IMG/VR virus record: IMGVR_UViG_3300032330_001609
Span: 197,975-214,776 of that record
Direction: 5' to 3' (one strand)
Length of the DNA: 16,802 nucleotides
Origin: a virus
Lineage: Duplodnaviria > Heunggongvirae > Uroviricota > Caudoviricetes
How positions within the stretch are numbered: position 1 is the stretch's first letter; each line of letters starts with the position of its first letter. The notes under the pieces are model-generated. The model did no database searches. It had not been told where the DNA came from and worked only from the letters and a program-made list of their open reading frames with translations. This document shows positions 1,255 to 14,004 of the stretch, in pieces. The translations under genes were made by a program, and so were the position numbers.

Positions 1255-1287
1255 AAAATAACCCCATCCTAAACGGTGGGGTTTTTT
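1253..1287. terminator. Bidirectional intrinsic terminator
   Basis: A-tract, ACCCCATC-ctaaac-GGTGGGGT stem (one G-U pair), then T-tract, between convergent genes. Confidence 0.75.
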
Positions 1288-3041
1288 GTTCCATAACCTA
1301 TTACGGATTCAATATTTTCTTTTTGTCTTTTTCCTCCGACAAATGTTCCATTAACTTTTTCACCATTGTCAATAACATCATCAACTTCATCAGTGTAGTT
1401 TCCCTTGGCATTTTTTGTTACTTTAACACCATTTTTAATAACCTTATTAATCATTTTGGAACCATTATAATCATCTTGGTAATTATTTTTATACATCCAT
1501 TCTAATGTTGATTTAATATCACCATCCTTGTTAGGTGTTTTTATTTCCTTAACACCATTTTTAACAACATCATCAACTTCTTCTTGAATCCGATAATTGA
1601 AAATACCGGTCTTTTTGTCAACACATCCGGATGGTCTAATTTCCTTAACACCATTCTCAATGACATTTTCACATTGACCATCAAACCCAATAGAAGTGAA
1701 TGTTCCGTTTTCCACTTTTAGTGTTTTTTTAATACCATTCTCAATAACATCATCAATCATTTTTGGGTAACTAGTTGAGTTATTTTCTTTCATCCATTCA
1801 GCGGTTGACGCAATATCACCATTACCGGGTGTCTTTGTTTCTTTAACACCATCTCTAATGACAAGATGTGATTCTAAAATAAGTTCTCTACCACTATTAT
1901 CTAAAATCAGAAGTGCATTCTTTTTTTGTTTTGTTTCTTTTATGCCATTTTCAAGAATATCATCTATGGTACCGGAAAGATGTTCTTCAAATTGTTTTGT
2001 TTCTCTCACATTATTTTTAATATGGTTTGTTTCTTTAATACCATTATCCAAAACTCTATCAATTAGATATTGGTCGGTGATAAAATATTCAGCATTGTTA
2101 CCACAATAATCACTAACTTTTGTTTCTTTAACACCATTTTGTAATGTGTCTTCCATTTTATTATCAAAAAATTTCATTACATCAACGTGGTTGGTTTCCT
2201 TCACACCATTTTCAATTGCGTCATCAACTATCCATTTCTTTGTAACTGTTCTTTCTTGTGTGTGTTTTACACCACTATCAATGATGTCTTCAATTTCACC
2301 TCTTTTCAATAAAGATTTATAATCGGTTTCTTTTATCCCCTTTTCAATTGTATCATCAACATTATTGCATTGGTGCCAACCAATATCGGTGTGTCTCACC
2401 CCATTTTGAATGGTGTTTTCAACATTGGTTATCATTGAAAATGGGTTATCTTGAGTGCGTTTCACACCATTTTGAATAGTATCTTCAACCGACCAAACCG
2501 TTTTCATATGTGCCCCTTTAGTTTTTTTAACACCCTTGTCAATTATTTCTTCAACTTGCCAATCAGTATATTGTGTCATTGGGGAAATATCTCTCACCCC
2601 ATTTTCAATAATATTTTCCGCAGTTAATTTACTACGCAGTTCGGAGGTAATAGTTGCCTTCACACCCTTGTCAATTACTTCTTCACATAAAAATTGGGAT
2701 ATATTAAAATCATCTGATTTTATTTCTTTCACCCCATTTTCAAGAACTTCTACCAAATTATATGATGGTGTTTGAGCGGGAGATGGTATATTTTTAGAAC
2801 CATTGATAATATTATCTTCCACCCATTTGGTGATGTATGATTGATTCTCCACAACATCCAACGAAGTGAACTCAAATATTTGTTTGAAGAAGTTGTAGTT
2901 ATACCACAGGGTTTTTTGTTCGGTTAACTCAATAACCCATTTTTTTGATTCCGTGAATATTAACCAAGTTGAACCATTGTGGGTATAGGTATCCACACCT
3001 TTTATCCAATTGTTAATTAGTGAATGTATTATTTTTTCCAT
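1269..3041 (-). CDS. 590-aa repeat protein: ~73-aa paralog-family N-domain plus ~20 units of (V/I)(E/D)xxIxNG(V/I)KxT with unique linkers
   Basis: Long ORF with a consensus promoter directly upstream. The motif recurs, e.g. VEDTIQNGVKRT, VENTIQNGVRHT, VDDAIENGVKET. Confidence 0.88.
   Translation of the reverse strand: MEKIIHSLINNWIKGVDTYTHNGSTWLIFTESKKWVIELTEQKTLWYNYNFFKQIFEFTSLDVVENQSYITKWVEDNIINGSKNIPSPAQTPSYNLVEVLENGVKEIKSDDFNISQFLCEEVIDKGVKATITSELRSKLTAENIIENGVRDISPMTQYTDWQVEEIIDKGVKKTKGAHMKTVWSVEDTIQNGVKRTQDNPFSMITNVENTIQNGVRHTDIGWHQCNNVDDTIEKGIKETDYKSLLKRGEIEDIIDSGVKHTQERTVTKKWIVDDAIENGVKETNHVDVMKFFDNKMEDTLQNGVKETKVSDYCGNNAEYFITDQYLIDRVLDNGIKETNHIKNNVRETKQFEEHLSGTIDDILENGIKETKQKKNALLILDNSGRELILESHLVIRDGVKETKTPGNGDIASTAEWMKENNSTSYPKMIDDVIENGIKKTLKVENGTFTSIGFDGQCENVIENGVKEIRPSGCVDKKTGIFNYRIQEEVDDVVKNGVKEIKTPNKDGDIKSTLEWMYKNNYQDDYNGSKMINKVIKNGVKVTKNAKGNYTDEVDDVIDNGEKVNGTFVGGKRQKENIESVIGYGTKNPTV
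1272..2822 (-). repeat. Degenerate coding tandem repeat, ~20 units; period about 66 nt in the N-proximal half, longer and irregular distally
   Basis: Linkers after units 1-10 are 10,11,10,10,10,10,9,10,10,12 aa. Later linkers are mostly 16-30 aa. Confidence 0.85.
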
Positions 3042-3045
3042 AGGA

Positions 3046-3077
3046 CAAATATAACAAACGTATTTGACAATCTCAAA
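3046..3077 (-). promoter_or_regulatory. Bacteroidota-type primary sigma promoter for the repeat protein
   Basis: Minus strand TTTG (3077-3074), 20-nt spacer, TATATTTG (3053-3046), matching TTTG-N19-21-TAnnTTTG. Only 4 nt separate it from the ATG at 3041. Confidence 0.7.
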
Positions 3078-3092
3078 TAGTTAACCTATAAT
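3064..3092 (+). promoter_or_regulatory. Canonical sigma70-like promoter
   Basis: TTGACA (3064-3069), 17 nt, TATAAT (3087-3092), upstream of ORF 3121. Confidence 0.55.
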
Positions 3093-3120
3093 TTTATTCC
3101 ATAGTACAAACAATTTTATT

Positions 3121-3531
3121 ATGGTAAAAACAAAAACAATGTCCTTTCTCAAATACAATAAATTTGAGTTCGGAAAACAAGTCGTGAGTCAATTCGTGGT
3201 CTTCGAGTGTAAGTGGCTCTTCTCAATTATCTTTTTCTATTTCCACAAATCAACGGAACCTCAGGACAGATTTCACACCCACGCATTTAATGCTTGGTCG
3301 GTCAAATTATTCGGAGAGTATGACGAACATATTTTGGATGATGAGACTACCGGTGAATATCACATCGTCAGACGTGAAAAAACTTTAATGTATTTTCCCC
3401 GGGATTCCTATCATCGAATTGCGAACAGCAACGGGTGTATGACAATTCTATTTTCCGGACCGTGGAAAAAATATTGGAAGGAATTTGTCAATGGTGAAAT
3501 AATTCACTATACTTGGGGTAGAGAAAAATAA
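3121..3531 (+). CDS. Cupin-fold protein
   Basis: FHTHAF...GEYDE...YHRI metal-binding pattern typical of cupins. Confidence 0.65.
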   Translation: MVKTKTMSFLKYNKFEFGKQVVSQFVVFECKWLFSIIFFYFHKSTEPQDRFHTHAFNAWSVKLFGEYDEHILDDETTGEYHIVRREKTLMYFPRDSYHRIANSNGCMTILFSGPWKKYWKEFVNGEIIHYTWGREK

Positions 3532-3855: not shown

Positions 3856-4140
3856 ATGGAATACGAGATTGGAACAATAATGCAATTTGCACATAATTGG
3901 GAAACCCGAGGTTGGAAATATTGTGACGGTAGAACATTAATGATTAGTGAATATCCTGAACTTTATGAAGTTATCGGATGTGGGTTTGGTGGTGACTTTA
4001 GAAAAACATTTAACCTACCGGATTTAAGACCAAGAGATACAGATGGGAATTTATTAAGAACTCCTTACGCGGAAAAAATAAATGGGGTACACTATGTACC
4101 ATATCAAATTTGTACCGTTGGAAGAACACCCTTAAAATAA
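3856..4140 (+). CDS. Stand-alone phage tail collar domain protein
   Basis: IGTIMQFA...GWKYCDGRTL.ISEYPELYEVIG..FGGD...FNLPDLR is the tail collar (Collar) signature. Confidence 0.85.
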   Translation: MEYEIGTIMQFAHNWETRGWKYCDGRTLMISEYPELYEVIGCGFGGDFRKTFNLPDLRPRDTDGNLLRTPYAEKINGVHYVPYQICTVGRTPLK

Positions 4141-4645: not shown

Positions 4646-5032
4646 ATGAAATTTATAATATCAGAAGATAGAATCTACGATTTAGTGATGAAACATATTA
4701 ACAGTATGTTTGATATTGATAATATTCATTGGTTATACGGTACTGATGATTTTGGTAATGAAGTGGATTATGGAATATCATTCTATGAAGGTGATTATGA
4801 CGATGATGACAATCTATTTAGATGGTATGGTAAAGATTATTTTTATAGTGAAGAAATGTCTCATCATAATCAAAAAATAATTGATGAATGGGCTGAAAAA
4901 TCACCAATGTTGGAATTTGATAATAACGGTAAAAAAGAACAATTAGATGCTCTTTTTGGTGATAAATGGCATCAACCATTTAAGGATTGGTTCCAAAAGA
5001 ATTTTGATTTACCAATTAAAACAATAGAATAG
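4646..5032 (+). CDS. Hypothetical protein, paralog family member
   Basis: Preceded by TATTTATA. N-terminus MKFIISE; ends LFGDKWHQPFKDWFQKNFDLPIKTIE, like 152-520. Confidence 0.78.
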   Translation: MKFIISEDRIYDLVMKHINSMFDIDNIHWLYGTDDFGNEVDYGISFYEGDYDDDDNLFRWYGKDYFYSEEMSHHNQKIIDEWAEKSPMLEFDNNGKKEQLDALFGDKWHQPFKDWFQKNFDLPIKTIE

Positions 5033-7198: not shown

Positions 7199-7933
7199 TT
7201 ATCGTTTTAATATTTCTTTAGCGTAAAACTCATCAAACCCAACCATCATTTCTGTCATAGATTTGTTTGTCTCTAATCCAACGATGTTATCAATTAACCC
7301 AAACGCTTTTGCCTCGTCCGAGTTAAACCATTTATCATTTCTTGACGACTCATACATCTCGTCAAATGATTTTCCACAATTCTCAGCCAAGATTTTAAAT
7401 AACATATAGTTATATTTTTCAGCTTCCAATTGATTGATACGAGTGTCTTGAACGTTTCCTTGTGTTCCGTGAGACACCATATGTGTCATAATCTTTGAAA
7501 AGATTAACGAACTTCTTTTTCCTTTGGCTCCTGAAGATACCAACACTGAACCCATTGATGCACACATTCCAACATTTAATGTTGCAACATCCGGTTTGAT
7601 GTAGTTCATTGTATCTCGGATTCCAAGTCCTGATAAAACACTTCCACCCGGAGTGTCAAGATACATACTGATGTCTTTTTTATCGGTGGTTTCCAAGAAG
7701 ATAAGTTGAGCTTGGATGATTGATGCCATCTGACTCTCAACCGGTCCGGAAACCCAAATAATTCTATCCATCATAAGTCGGGAGAAAATATCAATTTGAG
7801 TTGCTCTCATTTCTCTTTCTTCCAAGATGTATGGTGTCACACCTTCAATATGTTTTTCAAAATAATCTAAGTTAAGTCCGGACACACCTTTCTCACTCAT
7901 TGCGAATTTTCTAAACTCTTTTCCGTAGTTCAT
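7199..7933 (-). CDS. clpP: ATP-dependent Clp protease proteolytic subunit
   Basis: TPYILEE...DIFSRLMMDRII, TPGGSV, CASMG (catalytic Ser), IMTH (His), RND (Asp). N-terminus is Bacteroidota-like. Confidence 0.95.
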   Translation of the reverse strand: MNYGKEFRKFAMSEKGVSGLNLDYFEKHIEGVTPYILEEREMRATQIDIFSRLMMDRIIWVSGPVESQMASIIQAQLIFLETTDKKDISMYLDTPGGSVLSGLGIRDTMNYIKPDVATLNVGMCASMGSVLVSSGAKGKRSSLIFSKIMTHMVSHGTQGNVQDTRINQLEAEKYNYMLFKILAENCGKSFDEMYESSRNDKWFNSDEAKAFGLIDNIVGLETNKSMTEMMVGFDEFYAKEILKR

Positions 7934-11266: not shown

Positions 11267-11457
11267 TGTATATCATAGTTTGGAGAAATAGTCACCGGGA
11301 ACCATTTATTGATGTGGATTCTCGTCAATTTATGGAATCGTATTATAGTTACGAGGAGGCTAAGGTGGCGGCCGAAGAAATTGTTAAAAACGAAAACGAG
11401 GGTGAACCAAGTCCTTGGTATTTTGATTATAAAATTTATGAAGAGTGTAATGAATAA
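11266..11457 (+). CDS. Small hypothetical protein (Y.SYEEAK motif)
   Basis: TAATG overlap upstream; ATGAATAA overlap downstream. Confidence 0.7.
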   Translation: MYIIVWRNSHREPFIDVDSRQFMESYYSYEEAKVAAEEIVKNENEGEPSPWYFDYKIYEECNE

Positions 11458-11468
11458 ATTAGATAAAC
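11450..11468 (+). repeat. 19-bp direct repeat ATGAATAAATTAGATAAAC, copy 1 (copy 2 at 12766-12784)
   Basis: Exact match at the start codons of the array gene and thyA. Confidence 0.8.
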
Positions 11469-12058
11469 TTTGTATTAAATGGTTGAATGATAATTACAAC
11501 CATATGGAACCATTTATTATAAAAACATACCCTGATTATATTTTTCATATGAAAGATGGGAAATGTATTTTACAATACAATAAAAAAAATGGGTATGTTT
11601 ATGTGAGTTATAGAGAAATTTGGAAGTTTTTTGAATCCTATTTTAGTATGGATAACCAACAAATTAAGGACATCACAAAGATATGGGTGGAGGAACACTA
11701 CAAAATGGGGGTGACAACAACTCTAATTGAATTTCGTCAGATTGTAAATTTGGTGGAGGAACACTACAAAATGGGGGTAACAACAACTTCCTTCAGCACA
11801 ATTAATCTTGCTATACCGGTGGAGGAACACTACAAAATGGGGGTAACAACAACCAGAAGCATCAGCCGAACCATTATAGACCGGGTGGAGGAACACTACA
11901 AAATGGGGGTAACAACAACTGTTGTAAAAGATACCTTTGATGGTATTAAGATAGAGGAACAATACAAAGAAATTCAAACAATCAACAACCAATTAGAATT
12001 TTATTCTGAAAGGGATGTTGAAGAGTTATACAAACAAAACAAATGGATAAAAAATTAG
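11450..12058 (+). CDS. Paralog-family protein with in-frame repeat-spacer array (VEEHYKMGVTTT x4 plus variable decapeptides), 202 aa
   Basis: Start moved to ATG 11450, overlapping the upstream stop. The frame stays open through the whole array. Confidence 0.8.
   Translation: MNKLDKLCIKWLNDNYNHMEPFIIKTYPDYIFHMKDGKCILQYNKKNGYVYVSYREIWKFFESYFSMDNQQIKDITKIWVEEHYKMGVTTTLIEFRQIVNLVEEHYKMGVTTTSFSTINLAIPVEEHYKMGVTTTRSISRTIIDRVEEHYKMGVTTTVVKDTFDGIKIEEQYKEIQTINNQLEFYSERDVEELYKQNKWIKN
11686..11985. CRISPR. Cas-less CRISPR-like mini-array embedded in a CDS: 36-nt repeats, 30-nt spacers
   Basis: GGTGGAGGAACACTACAAAATGGGGGTAACAACAAC at 11686 (one A>G), 11752, 11818 and 11884. A degenerate copy at 11950 matches 16 of its first 19 nt. 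The four spacers are unrelated and exactly 30 nt. The structure is certain; CRISPR function is inferred. Confidence 0.65.
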
Positions 12059-12599: not shown

Positions 12600-12773
12600 A
12601 TGGGACTTATAAATAATCTTTATGCTGTGTATGAAAAATCACCGGCACACGGGAGCAAAGAACATAATGTAATCTTGGCTCCTTTCAAAACTAAAGAAGA
12701 AGCAGAACAAAGCAGAATTAAATATGGTTATAACACCGATAATTATTACGTAGATATTTTGAAATATGAATAA
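12600..12773 (+). CDS. Small hypothetical protein, 57 aa (FKTKEEAE motif)
   Basis: MGLINNLYAVYEK...YVDILKYE*; ATGAATAA overlap with thyA. Confidence 0.62.
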   Translation: MGLINNLYAVYEKSPAHGSKEHNVILAPFKTKEEAEQSRIKYGYNTDNYYVDILKYE

Positions 12774-12784
12774 ATTAGATAAAC
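12766..12784 (+). repeat. 19-bp direct repeat, copy 2
   Basis: Identical to 11450-11468. Confidence 0.8.
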
Positions 12785-14004
12785 AATACACAGACTTGCT
12801 CCAAGACATCTTAGATAACGGAGTAACAAAGCAAGACAGAACAGGTACAGGAACAATTTCAGTATTCGGAAGACAAATACGTCACGATATGAAAGATGGC
12901 TTTCCATTACTCACAACTAAGAAGATGCCATTTAAAACAATCGTAACAGAACTACTTTGGTTCTTACGAGGTGACACCAACATTAAGTTTTTGGTTGATA
13001 ATAATTGTCACATTTGGGATGGTGATGCTTATAAGAGATATGAGAATAGTTATGCCGCTTGGGTTGGAAATTCTTCGTGGTCAAATAATGCTGAGCCTTG
13101 GGATATGGAAAACTTTATTCGACTAATAAAAGAAGACGAGAGGTTTTGTTCCATATTTGGTGAGTTAGGTCCAATTTACGGTAAGCAATGGAGAAGTTGG
13201 GATGGTTATCATAATGCAATTGGTGAAGATAATAGATTCATAAAAAATATGAATGGTATAGACCAAATCCAAAATCTAATCAACGACCTTAAAACAAATC
13301 CAGACTCAAGACGATTAATGGTTAATGCTTGGAATGTTGGAGAGCTGGATTCTATGGTCTTGCCACCTTGCCATTATGGATTTCAAGTTTATACAAGAGA
13401 GTTGAGTGATGAGGAAAGATTATCTTGGATGAAACAAAATAAAAGTAATGTTGTTTTACCAATGAGAGACCCTAGTGTTGAGTTTTCTATGGATGAGTTT
13501 TTTAGACCTTATGGTGTACCTAAACGAGCAATCTCTTTAATGTGGAATCAAAGAAGTGTTGATACATTCTTAGGTTTACCATTCAACATCGCATCTTATG
13601 GATTATTATTAGAAATAATTGCAAAAGAAGTTAATATGGTTCCTGAAGAGTTGATTGGAAATTTAGGTGATGTTCATTTATACTCAAACCATATTGAACA
13701 AGCAAAAGAACAGATTGGAAGAGAATATACTCACCAAGAAAGAACAGAATTGTTAAAACAAGCGATGGGTAAAGAAAGATATGATAAAGCAGTTGATGAA
13801 TTGATGCCGTTCGGTGGTGGGTTAAGTAGTGAATATGAATGGTATAAAATACCTCATCATTCAAGAGAACCTTATAAGTTACCAAGATTGAAATTCTCAC
13901 CTTGCCCAATAACCGGAATTGATATTGAGTATCAATCAATAGCTCAATTCCAAATTGAGAATTACGAATCACATCCAACAATTAAAGCACCTTTAAGCAA
14001 TTAA
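12766..14004 (+). CDS. thyA: Thymidylate synthase with three large inserts
   Basis: DRTGTGT, ELLWFL, LGPIYGKQWR, SRR, LPPCH (catalytic Cys), QRSVD, PFNIASY (Asn, dUMP-specific), GDVHLY, HPTIKAPLS. Confidence 0.97.
   Translation: MNKLDKQYTDLLQDILDNGVTKQDRTGTGTISVFGRQIRHDMKDGFPLLTTKKMPFKTIVTELLWFLRGDTNIKFLVDNNCHIWDGDAYKRYENSYAAWVGNSSWSNNAEPWDMENFIRLIKEDERFCSIFGELGPIYGKQWRSWDGYHNAIGEDNRFIKNMNGIDQIQNLINDLKTNPDSRRLMVNAWNVGELDSMVLPPCHYGFQVYTRELSDEERLSWMKQNKSNVVLPMRDPSVEFSMDEFFRPYGVPKRAISLMWNQRSVDTFLGLPFNIASYGLLLEIIAKEVNMVPEELIGNLGDVHLYSNHIEQAKEQIGREYTHQERTELLKQAMGKERYDKAVDELMPFGGGLSSEYEWYKIPHHSREPYKLPRLKFSPCPITGIDIEYQSIAQFQIENYESHPTIKAPLSN

Follow-up and report, generated by a model that had tools for sequence, protein, structure and literature searches.

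Gene P0001 encodes a protein that is under selection and probably translated, and whose repeat units, in our best explanation, belong to a family in which new units do not come from whole-unit copying. Judging from sequence comparisons, a new unit would pair a second exact copy of a 36-nt core with exactly 30 nt of unrelated DNA, added beside a canonical core, and P0001 would be the product of the ageing of such units, with every linker taken from a shared cassette pool. We place the probability of this explanation as a whole, from the translation and selection of P0001 to the birth and ageing of its units, at roughly 0.6. The birth signature is observed in relatives of P0001, and we infer the same birth for the units of P0001 itself. 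No description of growth by a core copy plus 30 nt of unrelated DNA was found in the literature searched.

The window is the whole 16,802-nt stretch of phage DNA analyzed here (positions 197,975 to 214,776 of IMG/VR record IMGVR_UViG_3300032330_001609), and its features are listed in Table 1. P0001 comprises an N-domain, then 20 units, each made up of a 12-residue core and a linker, and then a conserved cap. The 3′ end of the putative promoter lies 4 nt short of the ATG, and the call is based on the Bacteroidota promoter consensus; the terminator-like hairpin has a 7-bp G+C stem, a 10-nt loop, and a T-run. With this predicted promoter and terminator, P0001 is likely its own transcription unit. 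A check for conserved enzymes among the neighbors found small variable genes, with HNH or GIY-YIG genes nearby in some loci only. The window also contains a thyA gene that is 90% identical to those of Flavobacterium phages.

Table 1. Positions of P0001, its parts and flanking signals, and the comparator array within the window
Feature	Position	Strand	Basis or remark
P0001, whole gene, 590 aa	1269..3041	-	TAG stop at 1269-1271; ORF list and translation
Likely host-type (Bacteroidota) promoter of P0001	3042..3085	-	TTTG, 20 nt, TAtaTTTG; read from sequence
Terminator-like hairpin overlapping the P0001 stop codon	1236..1283	-	Read from sequence
N-domain, residues 1-73 (about 80 residues)	2823..3041	-	pLDDT 84-96
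Units 1-10, residues 74-295	2157..2822	-	Regular part; 21-24 aa period; linkers 9-12 aa
Units 6 and 7, near-canonical cores	2388..2489	-	Cores at 2454-2489 and 2388-2423
Units 11-19, residues 296-576	1314..2156	-	Aged part; AT-rich core codons; linkers 10-30 aa
Unit 14 long cassette (KTPGNGD... type)	1758..1835	-	pLDDT 67-87
Unit 17 long cassette (KTPNKDGD... type), paralogue of unit 14	1452..1541	-	99% DNA-identical in L004
Conserved cap at the C-terminus (core of unit 19, linker GTFVGGKRQKEN, core of unit 20, stop)	1269..1385	-	Family comparison
Comparator: tail of a second gene (11450-12058), not P0001	11686..11985	+	Four DNA-identical 36-nt repeats

The core type (V/I)(E/D)xx(I/L)xNG(V/I)Kx(T/I) occurs in 20 copies in P0001, with cores 1–10 starting at residues 74, 96, 119, 141, 163, 185, 207, 228, 250, and 272, and cores 11–20 at residues 296, 327, 359, 391, 429, 457, 489, 531, 553, and 577. 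An earlier inspection of the DNA, here called the sequence-only reading, had counted about 20 constant-plus-variable units, and the span that it gave (1272–2822) is the repeat part of the ORF. Its description of the linkers also proved accurate: the first ten are 10, 11, 10, 10, 10, 10, 9, 10, 10, and 12 aa long, seven of them being exactly 10 aa (30 nt), and the distal ones are mostly 16–30 aa, together with two of 10–12 aa (30–90 nt overall). The linkers are mutually unrelated within P0001, as it had stated for the first ten, except in units 14 and 17, where KTPG.../KTPN... cassettes occur; that reading had noticed one real duplication. Nor does P0001 belong to a named repeat family, which that reading had suspected; when P0001 and ten neighbor proteins were searched with Pfam and PHROG profiles, P0001 had no match (best E-values: Pfam-A 0.0086, an unrelated family short of the cut-off; PHROGs 0.082).

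The cores of P0001 have a pairwise DNA identity of 63%, unlike CRISPR repeats, which are near-identical and 23–50 nt long; the cores of younger relatives are identical at 36/36 positions. The repeat in P0001 is far above chance. Identity to the canonical core, for which L026:4250–4285 served as the reference, averaged 26.2/36 in units 1–10 versus 21.0/36 in units 11–19, where the core GC3 is mostly 1/12, and it reached 31/36 and 34/36 in units 6 and 7, respectively. Core variability at codon positions 1, 2, and 3 was 0.84, 0.62, and 1.22 bits; it thus tracks codon position, indicating that the constraint acts at the protein level.

The family comprises at least 849 homologous clusters at 90% identity, with 477 representatives at 50% identity, and is a large, uncharacterized family from uncultured jumbo phages that probably infect freshwater Bacteroidota. 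Its members form a continuum: at one end, DNA-identical 36-nt cores alternate with unrelated 30-nt linkers, and at the other are long arrays that have diverged, such as P0001. The gap between two canonical cores was 30 nt in all 18 of the 18 IMG/VR matches in a search that allowed 15–45 nt. Between perfect cores, 90% of the linkers were exactly 10 aa long and none had 9, 11, or 12 aa, and the share of exactly 10-aa linkers dropped to 24% between diverged cores. Within family proteins, the cores were 55–100% identical and the linkers were at chance (about 5%); for core pairs with at least 90% DNA identity, the linkers were 27% identical. The information content was about 2 bits at positions 1–30, including third codon positions, and about 0 at positions 37–66. 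When the best match elsewhere was recorded for 55 canonical-flanked linkers, it was 13–18/30 for 32 and 26–30/30 for 23 of them, with none at 19–25. Random codons at a G+C of 0.40 fitted the 85 private young linkers better than the phage proteome did, and the G+C of private young linkers was 0.408, whereas phage 30-mers without stop codons had 0.331 (z = 6.1). Private linkers accounted for 45% beside canonical cores versus about 10% beside diverged cores, and their share dropped along the array (unit 1, 29%; units 9–10, 3%). The canonical core itself was identical at 35/36 or more positions across arrays whose N-domains were 49–56% identical, and was conserved at synonymous sites across these phages. 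The arrays stayed open through up to 29 linkers, and close strains differed in unit number, internally too, beyond the N-proximal end. We propose that unit birth would be a ruler-type insertion with target duplication, as in CRISPR spacer integration, in which the inserted 30 nt would be random-looking and have a G+C above that of the phage.

All 19 linkers of P0001 recur in other family proteins and hence are not private to it. The shared linkers had a pN/pS of about 0.37, and those of P0001 are conserved and under purifying selection, not decayed. The sequence-only reading had called P0001 a possible fossil array, an idea that survives in part: the family continuum and the proximal cores of P0001, which are nearer the canonical sequence, speak for it, but the shared cassettes, the purifying selection, and the predicted promoter and terminator speak against a decayed relic. 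Shared cassettes were 90–100% DNA-identical where the N-domains were 75–78% identical, and both ends of the identity blocks fell mid-core. For example, the unit 14 cassette, which is common to 45 proteins, was 97–99% DNA-identical in two relatives with N-domains in that range (L006 and L013), and the unit 17 cassette is common to 19 proteins. Two paralogues in one phage had a 30/30 cassette in common. A candidate self-protospacer in L018/L019 was rejected because it was a second paralogous array. Other true duplications were an HDDVYHHKGR pair in L010 and EIGWHQCNN, which occurs twice in P0002. The traded cassette consists of the second half of a core, the linker, and the first half of the next core, and is exchanged between phages and paralogues via recombination at the core center, around CAAAATGGGGT. 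During ageing, the core codons would drift towards the AT-rich synonymous codons of the phage, whereas the linkers would acquire insertions and deletions and then come under purifying selection.

The N-domain was modeled as a helix, four strands, and two helices; it has nearly invariant columns across 120 homologues and a pN/pS of 0.32. It had no Pfam or PHROG family and no clear PDB fold (the best Z among solved structures, 5.4, was uninformative), and a fold search of BFVD returned uncharacterized phage proteins only. Its tail (ITKW-VED...) continues straight into the first core. The N-domain family natively carries the core motif as its C-terminal element, and therefore the core is not a CRISPR repeat in origin. 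At the other end of the gene, the cap, found in 30 proteins, ends most long family members. The sequence-only reading had suggested structure prediction as a way to see whether the constant blocks form a solenoid, and no confident solenoid was obtained: AlphaFold2 gave the P0001 repeats a pLDDT below 50 and modeled those of a younger relative (L024) as a beta-hairpin ladder with a pLDDT of 50–68. The two repeat models, both low-confidence, conflict, with helices in one and strands in the other. Foldseek found no match for the ladder model at an E-value of 0.001 or better, and the ESM Atlas gave no usable match. The Asn-Gly of each core is probably a beta-hairpin turn, and the unit 14 cassette, as modeled, is probably a small folded insert.

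The comparator array in the window contains three unrelated 30-nt inserts, and its last repeat copy is degenerate. As the earlier reading had pointed out, a DNA core is shared with P0001, in which units 2, 4, and 7 carry (G/C)AAAATGGGGTGA. The 10-mer CAAAATGGGG occurs five times in the window, against 0.13 expected, once in P0001 and four times at positions 11686–11920; it is read as Q-N-G in P0001 and as K-M-G in the array, the difference in register that had been noted before. The link between P0001 and this array holds for the 10-mer and the 36 + 30 geometry only, the cores being just 18/36 identical.

We searched for an inserting enzyme, a host repeat, and a source of the inserts. There was no match to Cas1 (PF01867) in the record of the window and four relatives (91–100% complete), and five phage records contained no match to reverse transcriptase (PF00078) and none above the cut-off to Nop/Tas (PF01798). 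Across 185,579 species genomes, an exact search with a 21-mer of the core yielded a single chance match, in a membrane-protein gene, and no array, and the 36-mer core was present in 0 of 401 Bacteroidia genomes at up to 3 mismatches. CRISPR arrays are often absent from assembled genomes. Three young arrays had no CRISPR-DR family in Rfam at a permissive threshold, and the core, folded as RNA on either strand, gave nothing beyond shuffles (z about 0) and no terminal stem; the antisense core has a CAAC end and AUUUUG, a central U-run, but it starts with GGUG. The phage's own genome contained no linker source and no second linker copies. One linker with 60% G+C, searched against 241 million metagenome records, was found in family genes only, as were three young linkers in IMG/VR; the 29 linkers of L020 had no match among cultured phages, and re-use of linkers in inverted or frame-shifted form gave chance-level matches only.

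Several known systems resemble the family in part. Type VI-B arrays have a 36-nt repeat, a 30-nt spacer, and a 66-nt crRNA, and their repeat ends, 5′-GUUG and CAAC-3′, are complementary and pair as a stem around a poly-U loop (Smargon et al. 2016, 10.1101/092577). The II-C and VI-B arrays of Flavobacterium columnare both have 36-bp repeats, are filled by one ruler-type complex, and contain many self-derived spacers (Hoikkala et al. 2021, PMC8092290). The canonical units of the family have the type VI-B geometry, and young relatives of P0001 resemble these Bacteroidota arrays in their 36-nt constant block, 30-nt unique block, and 66-nt period, in the exact length control, in the mutually unrelated inserts, and in having a variable end beside one flank, opposite an end that is conserved and degenerate. 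Unlike them, the family arrays are read and selected as protein, their constant block natively forms the C-terminal motif of a protein domain, and they lack cas genes (in five records), a leader, and a terminal GUUG/CAAC stem. Virus-borne mini-arrays carry one or two spacers against related viruses and host-identical repeats (PMC11656645), and huge phages have incomplete CRISPR loci (Al-Shayeb et al. 2020, PMC7162821). The family likewise has a phage-carried repeat-spacer structure without an adaptation module; however, unlike mini-arrays, its arrays extend to 29 units and are read as protein, the searches gave no host repeat, and none of the linkers tested matches another virus. False CRISPRs, namely tandem repeats in protein genes such as SdrC, which are without spacer diversity (Zhang and Ye 2017, PMC5294841), share the repeat-spacer look within a coding gene and the absence of cas genes, whereas the family inserts are mutually unrelated, with chance identity within genes, and vary between strains. 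Off-target spacer integration founds neo-CRISPR arrays in E. coli (Nivala et al. 2018, cited in 10.1101/148544), similarly at a repeat-like site outside the CRISPR locus; as the citing text presents it, that case concerns the E. coli chromosome, over-expressed Cas1–Cas2, and non-coding sequence, not phage genes and not in-frame insertion. As in antigenic-variation loci and modular phage fibers, conserved joints are crossover points and variable segments are traded, and as in LRR proteins, variable loops are interspersed with a constant structural motif. In contrast to such cassette-shuffled or LRR proteins, there are no silent donor cassettes in the genome and no Pfam repeat match, and the new segments resemble random DNA, not diverged copies.

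Other explanations compete with ours. P0001 could be an ordinary tandem-repeat protein, growing by whole-unit duplication and unequal crossing-over, in which linkers look unrelated since they are old and free to vary, gene conversion keeps young cores identical, and a large cassette pool in the phage population, as yet unsampled, supplies the new linkers. The wide sharing and shuffling of cassettes with recombination breakpoints within cores, the true duplications (units 14 and 17 of P0001, the L010 pair, and EIGWHQCNN in P0002), the partly internal strain differences, and the lack of cas genes and of an external linker source in the searches run all fit this account. We nonetheless regard it as rather improbable: the divergence of canonical-unit linkers is bimodal, with no continuum; the exact 30 nt occurs only beside canonical cores, though old units tolerate other lengths; young private linkers are random-codon, have a G+C above that of the phage, and lack the AT-rich third positions of old linkers; and the first origin of new cassettes is left unexplained. 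In-place targeted hypermutation of the linkers with protected cores, as in diversity-generating retroelements, would hold the length at 30 nt and yield private linkers without an external source, but it is very improbable, given that five phage records lack a reverse transcriptase, the genome holds no second linker copy, linkers are identical or unrelated and none is partly mutated, and close strains differ in unit number, not in sequence alone. The chance that P0001 is a non-coding CRISPR or tandem array miscalled as a gene is negligible. Its repeat-spacer geometry and a period divisible by three suggest such an array, but the cores preserve their amino acid motif despite variable third codon positions, pN/pS lies well under 1, and the N-domain and cap are conserved. 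Furthermore, by our own estimate a random 30-mer at 40% G+C has roughly an even chance of lacking stops in a given frame, so by chance alone frames would almost never stay open over 19–29 linkers; this reading is refuted by the codon-position pattern and by the open frames.

Literal CRISPR adaptation is a special case, as it names the enzyme within our best explanation: host Cas1–Cas2, with Flavobacteriia type II-C and VI-B systems (36-nt repeat, 30-nt spacer) as candidates, would integrate prespacers at canonical cores because the core resembles the host repeat, and in-frame, stop-free products would survive. The sum of 36 + 30 = 66 nt matches type VI-B and F. columnare arrays, the antisense core has its central U-run and CAAC end, the thyA gene of the window has its 90% match in Flavobacterium phages, and the founding of arrays by off-target integration is known in E. 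coli, to the extent reported in 10.1101/148544. We consider it unlikely, if less so than ordinary tandem repetition. The repeat was absent from the bacterial genomes searched and had no Rfam CRISPR-DR match, the GUUG/CAAC signature is present at one end only, with no predicted terminal stem, the linkers tested had no protospacer, and internal cores also receive insertions. Against CRISPR-like birth in general, the core motif is native to the N-domain family, and the five phage records contain no inserting enzyme. Our best explanation also has against it that the bacterial genomes searched hold no array with this repeat, that the linkers tested gave no source, that close strains differ internally as well, and that the two low-confidence repeat models disagree.

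Birth of units by core duplication and 30-nt insertion, our preferred reading, leads to a broader proposal that we hold only tentatively: family genes may grow when 30-nt pieces of foreign (host) DNA are captured, in ruler-type fashion, beside a duplicated core, most likely via a CRISPR integrase acting on phage DNA, and the pieces, translated and filtered for frame, would become selected, tradable cassettes, with P0001 as a long-term product. If the capture of foreign DNA is true, it would provide a route by which random DNA turns into new protein sequence, and the captured pieces might record past hosts. If the birth mode is true, protein sequence would arise from DNA that was non-coding or out of frame, through steps datable along one gene, with random-looking 10-residue inserts turning into conserved cassettes under purifying selection, and the de novo birth of peptide segments would be directly testable in hundreds of natural replicates. 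Phage genomes would then be substrates of a spacer-integration-type reaction, which would bear on target choice in CRISPR adaptation and on array calling in viral metagenomes. Should the tandem-repeat account hold instead, the family would still be a large and as yet unnamed group of repeat proteins in freshwater jumbo phages, evolving fast and in an unusual mode of concerted evolution.

P0001 is a 590-residue protein encoded on a contig listed at 332 kb, which belongs to an uncultured jumbo phage. Residues 1–73 were modeled by AlphaFold2 as a compact N-terminal domain of one helix, four strands, and two helices (pLDDT 84–96), and 20 units follow, each opening with a 12-residue core, (V/I)(E/D)xx(I/L)xNG(V/I)Kx(T/I). 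The layout proposed in the sequence-only reading, a constant core with variable linkers in about 20 units, was borne out: there are 20 cores, and linkers 1–10 are 9–12 residues long, with exactly 10 residues in seven of them, while the later ones are mostly 16–30 residues. The shared DNA word CAAAATGGGG to which it drew attention occurs five times in the window, against 0.13 occurrences expected. Units 19–20 form a C-terminal cap, which is seen again in most long relatives. In some relatives (L044 and P0192), the cap pair (GT(F/Y)VGGKRQKEN plus a ...YG(T/V)K... core) lies mid-array, suggesting that arrays can be extended or fused past a former end. The motif upstream of the gene is presumably a host-type (Bacteroidota) promoter, and because it ends so near the ATG, the mRNA may be almost leaderless.

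Positions of features in the window (plain numbers) and at loci of P0001 relatives in other phage records (L numbers)
Feature	Position	Strand	Remark
P0001 ORF	1269-3041	minus	590 residues
Promoter-like motif TTTG, 20 nt, TAtaTTTG	3042-3085	minus	ends 4 nt 5' of P0001 ATG; read from sequence
Terminator-like hairpin with T-run	1236-1283	minus	overlaps P0001 TAG stop
20-nt tandem repeat, 2.1 copies	3090-3133		divergent intergenic region, P0001 gene/cupin-like gene
Cupin-like gene	3121-3531
Non-repeat N-domain paralogues	152-520, 4646-5032, 11450-11722
Small tail-collar-domain protein	3856-4140
Prohead-protease-like gene	7199-7933
thyA	12766-14004		90% identity with Flavobacterium phage vB_FspM_immuto over 164 nt
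Family array	L018:936-1997	minus	about 2 kb from the next
Family array	L018:4001-5080	plus
Array with mid-array cap pair	L044:215-1237	minus
Canonical core	L026:4250-4285

The P0001 gene is surrounded by small variable accessory genes and lies outside any structural module. Many of the small genes flanking a family gene (at L010, L011, L028, and others) start with an MKIIITE(S/E)Q-type N-terminal peptide. Pfam and PHROG searches with P0001 returned no matching family; a word-indexed search found at least 849 related clusters, and an exhaustive search yielded 477 representatives at 50% identity, 102 to 784 residues long. The architecture is constant, with the same N-domain and a varying number of units, and core-to-core spacing in 260 family proteins peaked sharply at 22 residues (819 cases; 23 residues in 213 and 24 in 143). 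The window's record and four relatives (91–100% complete) carry one family gene each; L018 carries two arrays. A W-(V/F)-E...K-T motif, corresponding to the repeat core, ends the non-repeat N-domain paralogues in the window, in keeping with a core that is native to the C-terminal end of this domain family. The structure models of the repeats disagree: short helices were predicted at the P0001 cores (pLDDT < 50), whereas a regular young relative, L024, was modeled as a beta-hairpin ladder with Asn-Gly at the turns (pLDDT 50–68), and structural neighbor searches with the two models gave nothing significant. We weakly prefer a hairpin ladder, in which one edge would carry the constant turns and the other the variable loops.

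The P0001 repeat array is a protein under selection. Variability among the 20 cores is lowest at the second codon position and highest at the third (0.84, 0.62, and 1.22 bits at positions 1, 2, and 3), and all four Gly codons are used at the invariant core glycine. In phage pairs whose N-domains are 60–90% identical in DNA, pN/pS was 0.32 for the N-domain (pS 0.676), 0.51 for the cores (pS 0.411), and 0.37 for shared linkers (pS 0.285), the linker pairs having been picked by amino-acid similarity, which biases their pN downward but affects their low pS less. This low pS indicates that the shared cassettes (linkers with their flanking half-cores) postdate the divergence of the phages carrying them.

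Each of the 19 P0001 linkers recurs elsewhere in the family, in between 1 and 97 further proteins, where the linker order is partly different. Shared cassettes are 90–100% identical in DNA, compared with 75–78% for the N-domains of the same phages, and the blocks of identity start mid-core, span the linker, and stop halfway through the following core. The tradable module is thus a half-core, a linker, and a half-core, and the crossover point is the core centre around CAAAATGGGGT. This trade is ordinary recombinational mosaicism, which accounts for the shuffled linker order and for strain differences at internal positions. The paralogous arrays of L018 share the cassette SSGPYLSSED (30/30 nt); we rejected this match as a self-protospacer, since the second copy belongs to the paralogous array. 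At some loci, HNH-type and GIY-YIG-type homing-endonuclease-like genes (L018:1-231, minus; L010:5734-6621, plus) lie 1–2 kb from the family gene; they are not conserved neighbors, but they may promote local cassette exchange.

The younger relatives indicate how units arise. The canonical 36-nt core, reading VEDTIQNGVKHT, is matched at 35 or more of 36 positions in arrays whose N-domains are only 49–56% identical, and its third positions are G+C-rich, although the phage has 32% G+C. Information in canonical units is about 2 bits at positions 1–30, third positions included, drops at codon 11, and is about 0 at positions 37–66. Codon 11 varies (0.46, 1.47, and 0.57 bits) in the canonical units of L020, L024, L026, and L033, standing out as an island amid codons that are conserved even at synonymous sites; most of its variants (Asp, Asn, Tyr, Arg, and Gln) are one step away from CAC. 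Where core pairs are at least 90% identical in DNA, the linkers are 27% identical, the level of chance. Linkers flanked by two perfect cores have exactly 10 residues in 90% of cases and never 9, 11, or 12, and this share drops steadily to about 24% with core divergence; when a gap of 15–45 nt was allowed between canonical half-cores in an IMG/VR scan, it was 30 nt in 18/18 matches. Because other lengths are tolerated in older units, the length ruler appears to act at birth and not via selection.

The best matches of 55 distinct canonical-flanked linkers in other arrays fell at 13–18/30 (32 linkers) or 26–30/30 (23 linkers), with none between, which speaks strongly against both duplication followed by gradual divergence and hypermutation of the linkers in place. 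The 85 private young linkers (those not shared with other family proteins) are fitted better by random codons at 40% G+C than by the phage proteome; arginine makes up 8.4% of their residues, against 3.0% in the proteome, and their G+C content is 0.408, against 0.331 in stop-free phage 30-mers (z = 6.1). Third positions are AT-rich in old linkers, which contain more Asp, Glu, His, Trp, and Tyr. Novelty is concentrated beside canonical cores and toward the N-domain: 45% of linkers adjoining canonical cores are private, compared with about 10% beside diverged cores, and along the array the private share declines, being 29% at unit 1 and 3% at units 9–10. Related strains keep their distal units and differ in proximal ones, with further differences internally, between canonical cores.

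A duplicated target with an insert of fixed length is the type of product made by CRISPR integrases, and a new unit would likewise consist of a duplicated 36-nt target and a fixed 30-nt insert. The host Cas1-Cas2 might be the agent, because the 36+30 geometry is shared with type VI-B CRISPR arrays (10.1101/092577) and with the two arrays of Flavobacterium columnare, which are filled by a single ruler-type complex that takes many self-derived spacers (PMC8092290); in E. coli, moreover, new arrays were founded by off-target integration, as cited in 10.1101/148544. However, the five phage records contained no cas1, reverse transcriptase, or Tas genes, Rfam gave no CRISPR-DR match for three young arrays, and RNA folding of the core gave no terminal stem on either strand. 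The repeat was also absent from bacterial arrays (exact 21-mer in 185,579 species genomes; up to three mismatches in 401 Bacteroidia genomes), and the tested linkers had no external source in their own phage genome, cultured phages, metagenome records (one linker), or IMG/VR (three linkers). Given the CRISPR-like geometry, and against it these negatives and a core motif that is probably native to the N-domain family, we consider host Cas1-Cas2 a possible agent, though less likely than not, and we assign a probability of about 0.6 to the birth of units by insertion, in which a second 36-nt core copy is gained with an unrelated 30-nt insert.

Judged from its cores and linkers, P0001 lies at the aged end of the family range. 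None of its 19 linkers is private, its cores match the canonical core at a mean of 26.2/36 positions in units 1–10 and 21.0/36 in units 11–20, with AT-rich codons in the distal cores, and units 6 and 7 still match at 31/36 and 34/36. The name "fossil array" given to these repeats on first reading therefore suits their probable origin but not their present state, in which P0001 is a maintained protein.
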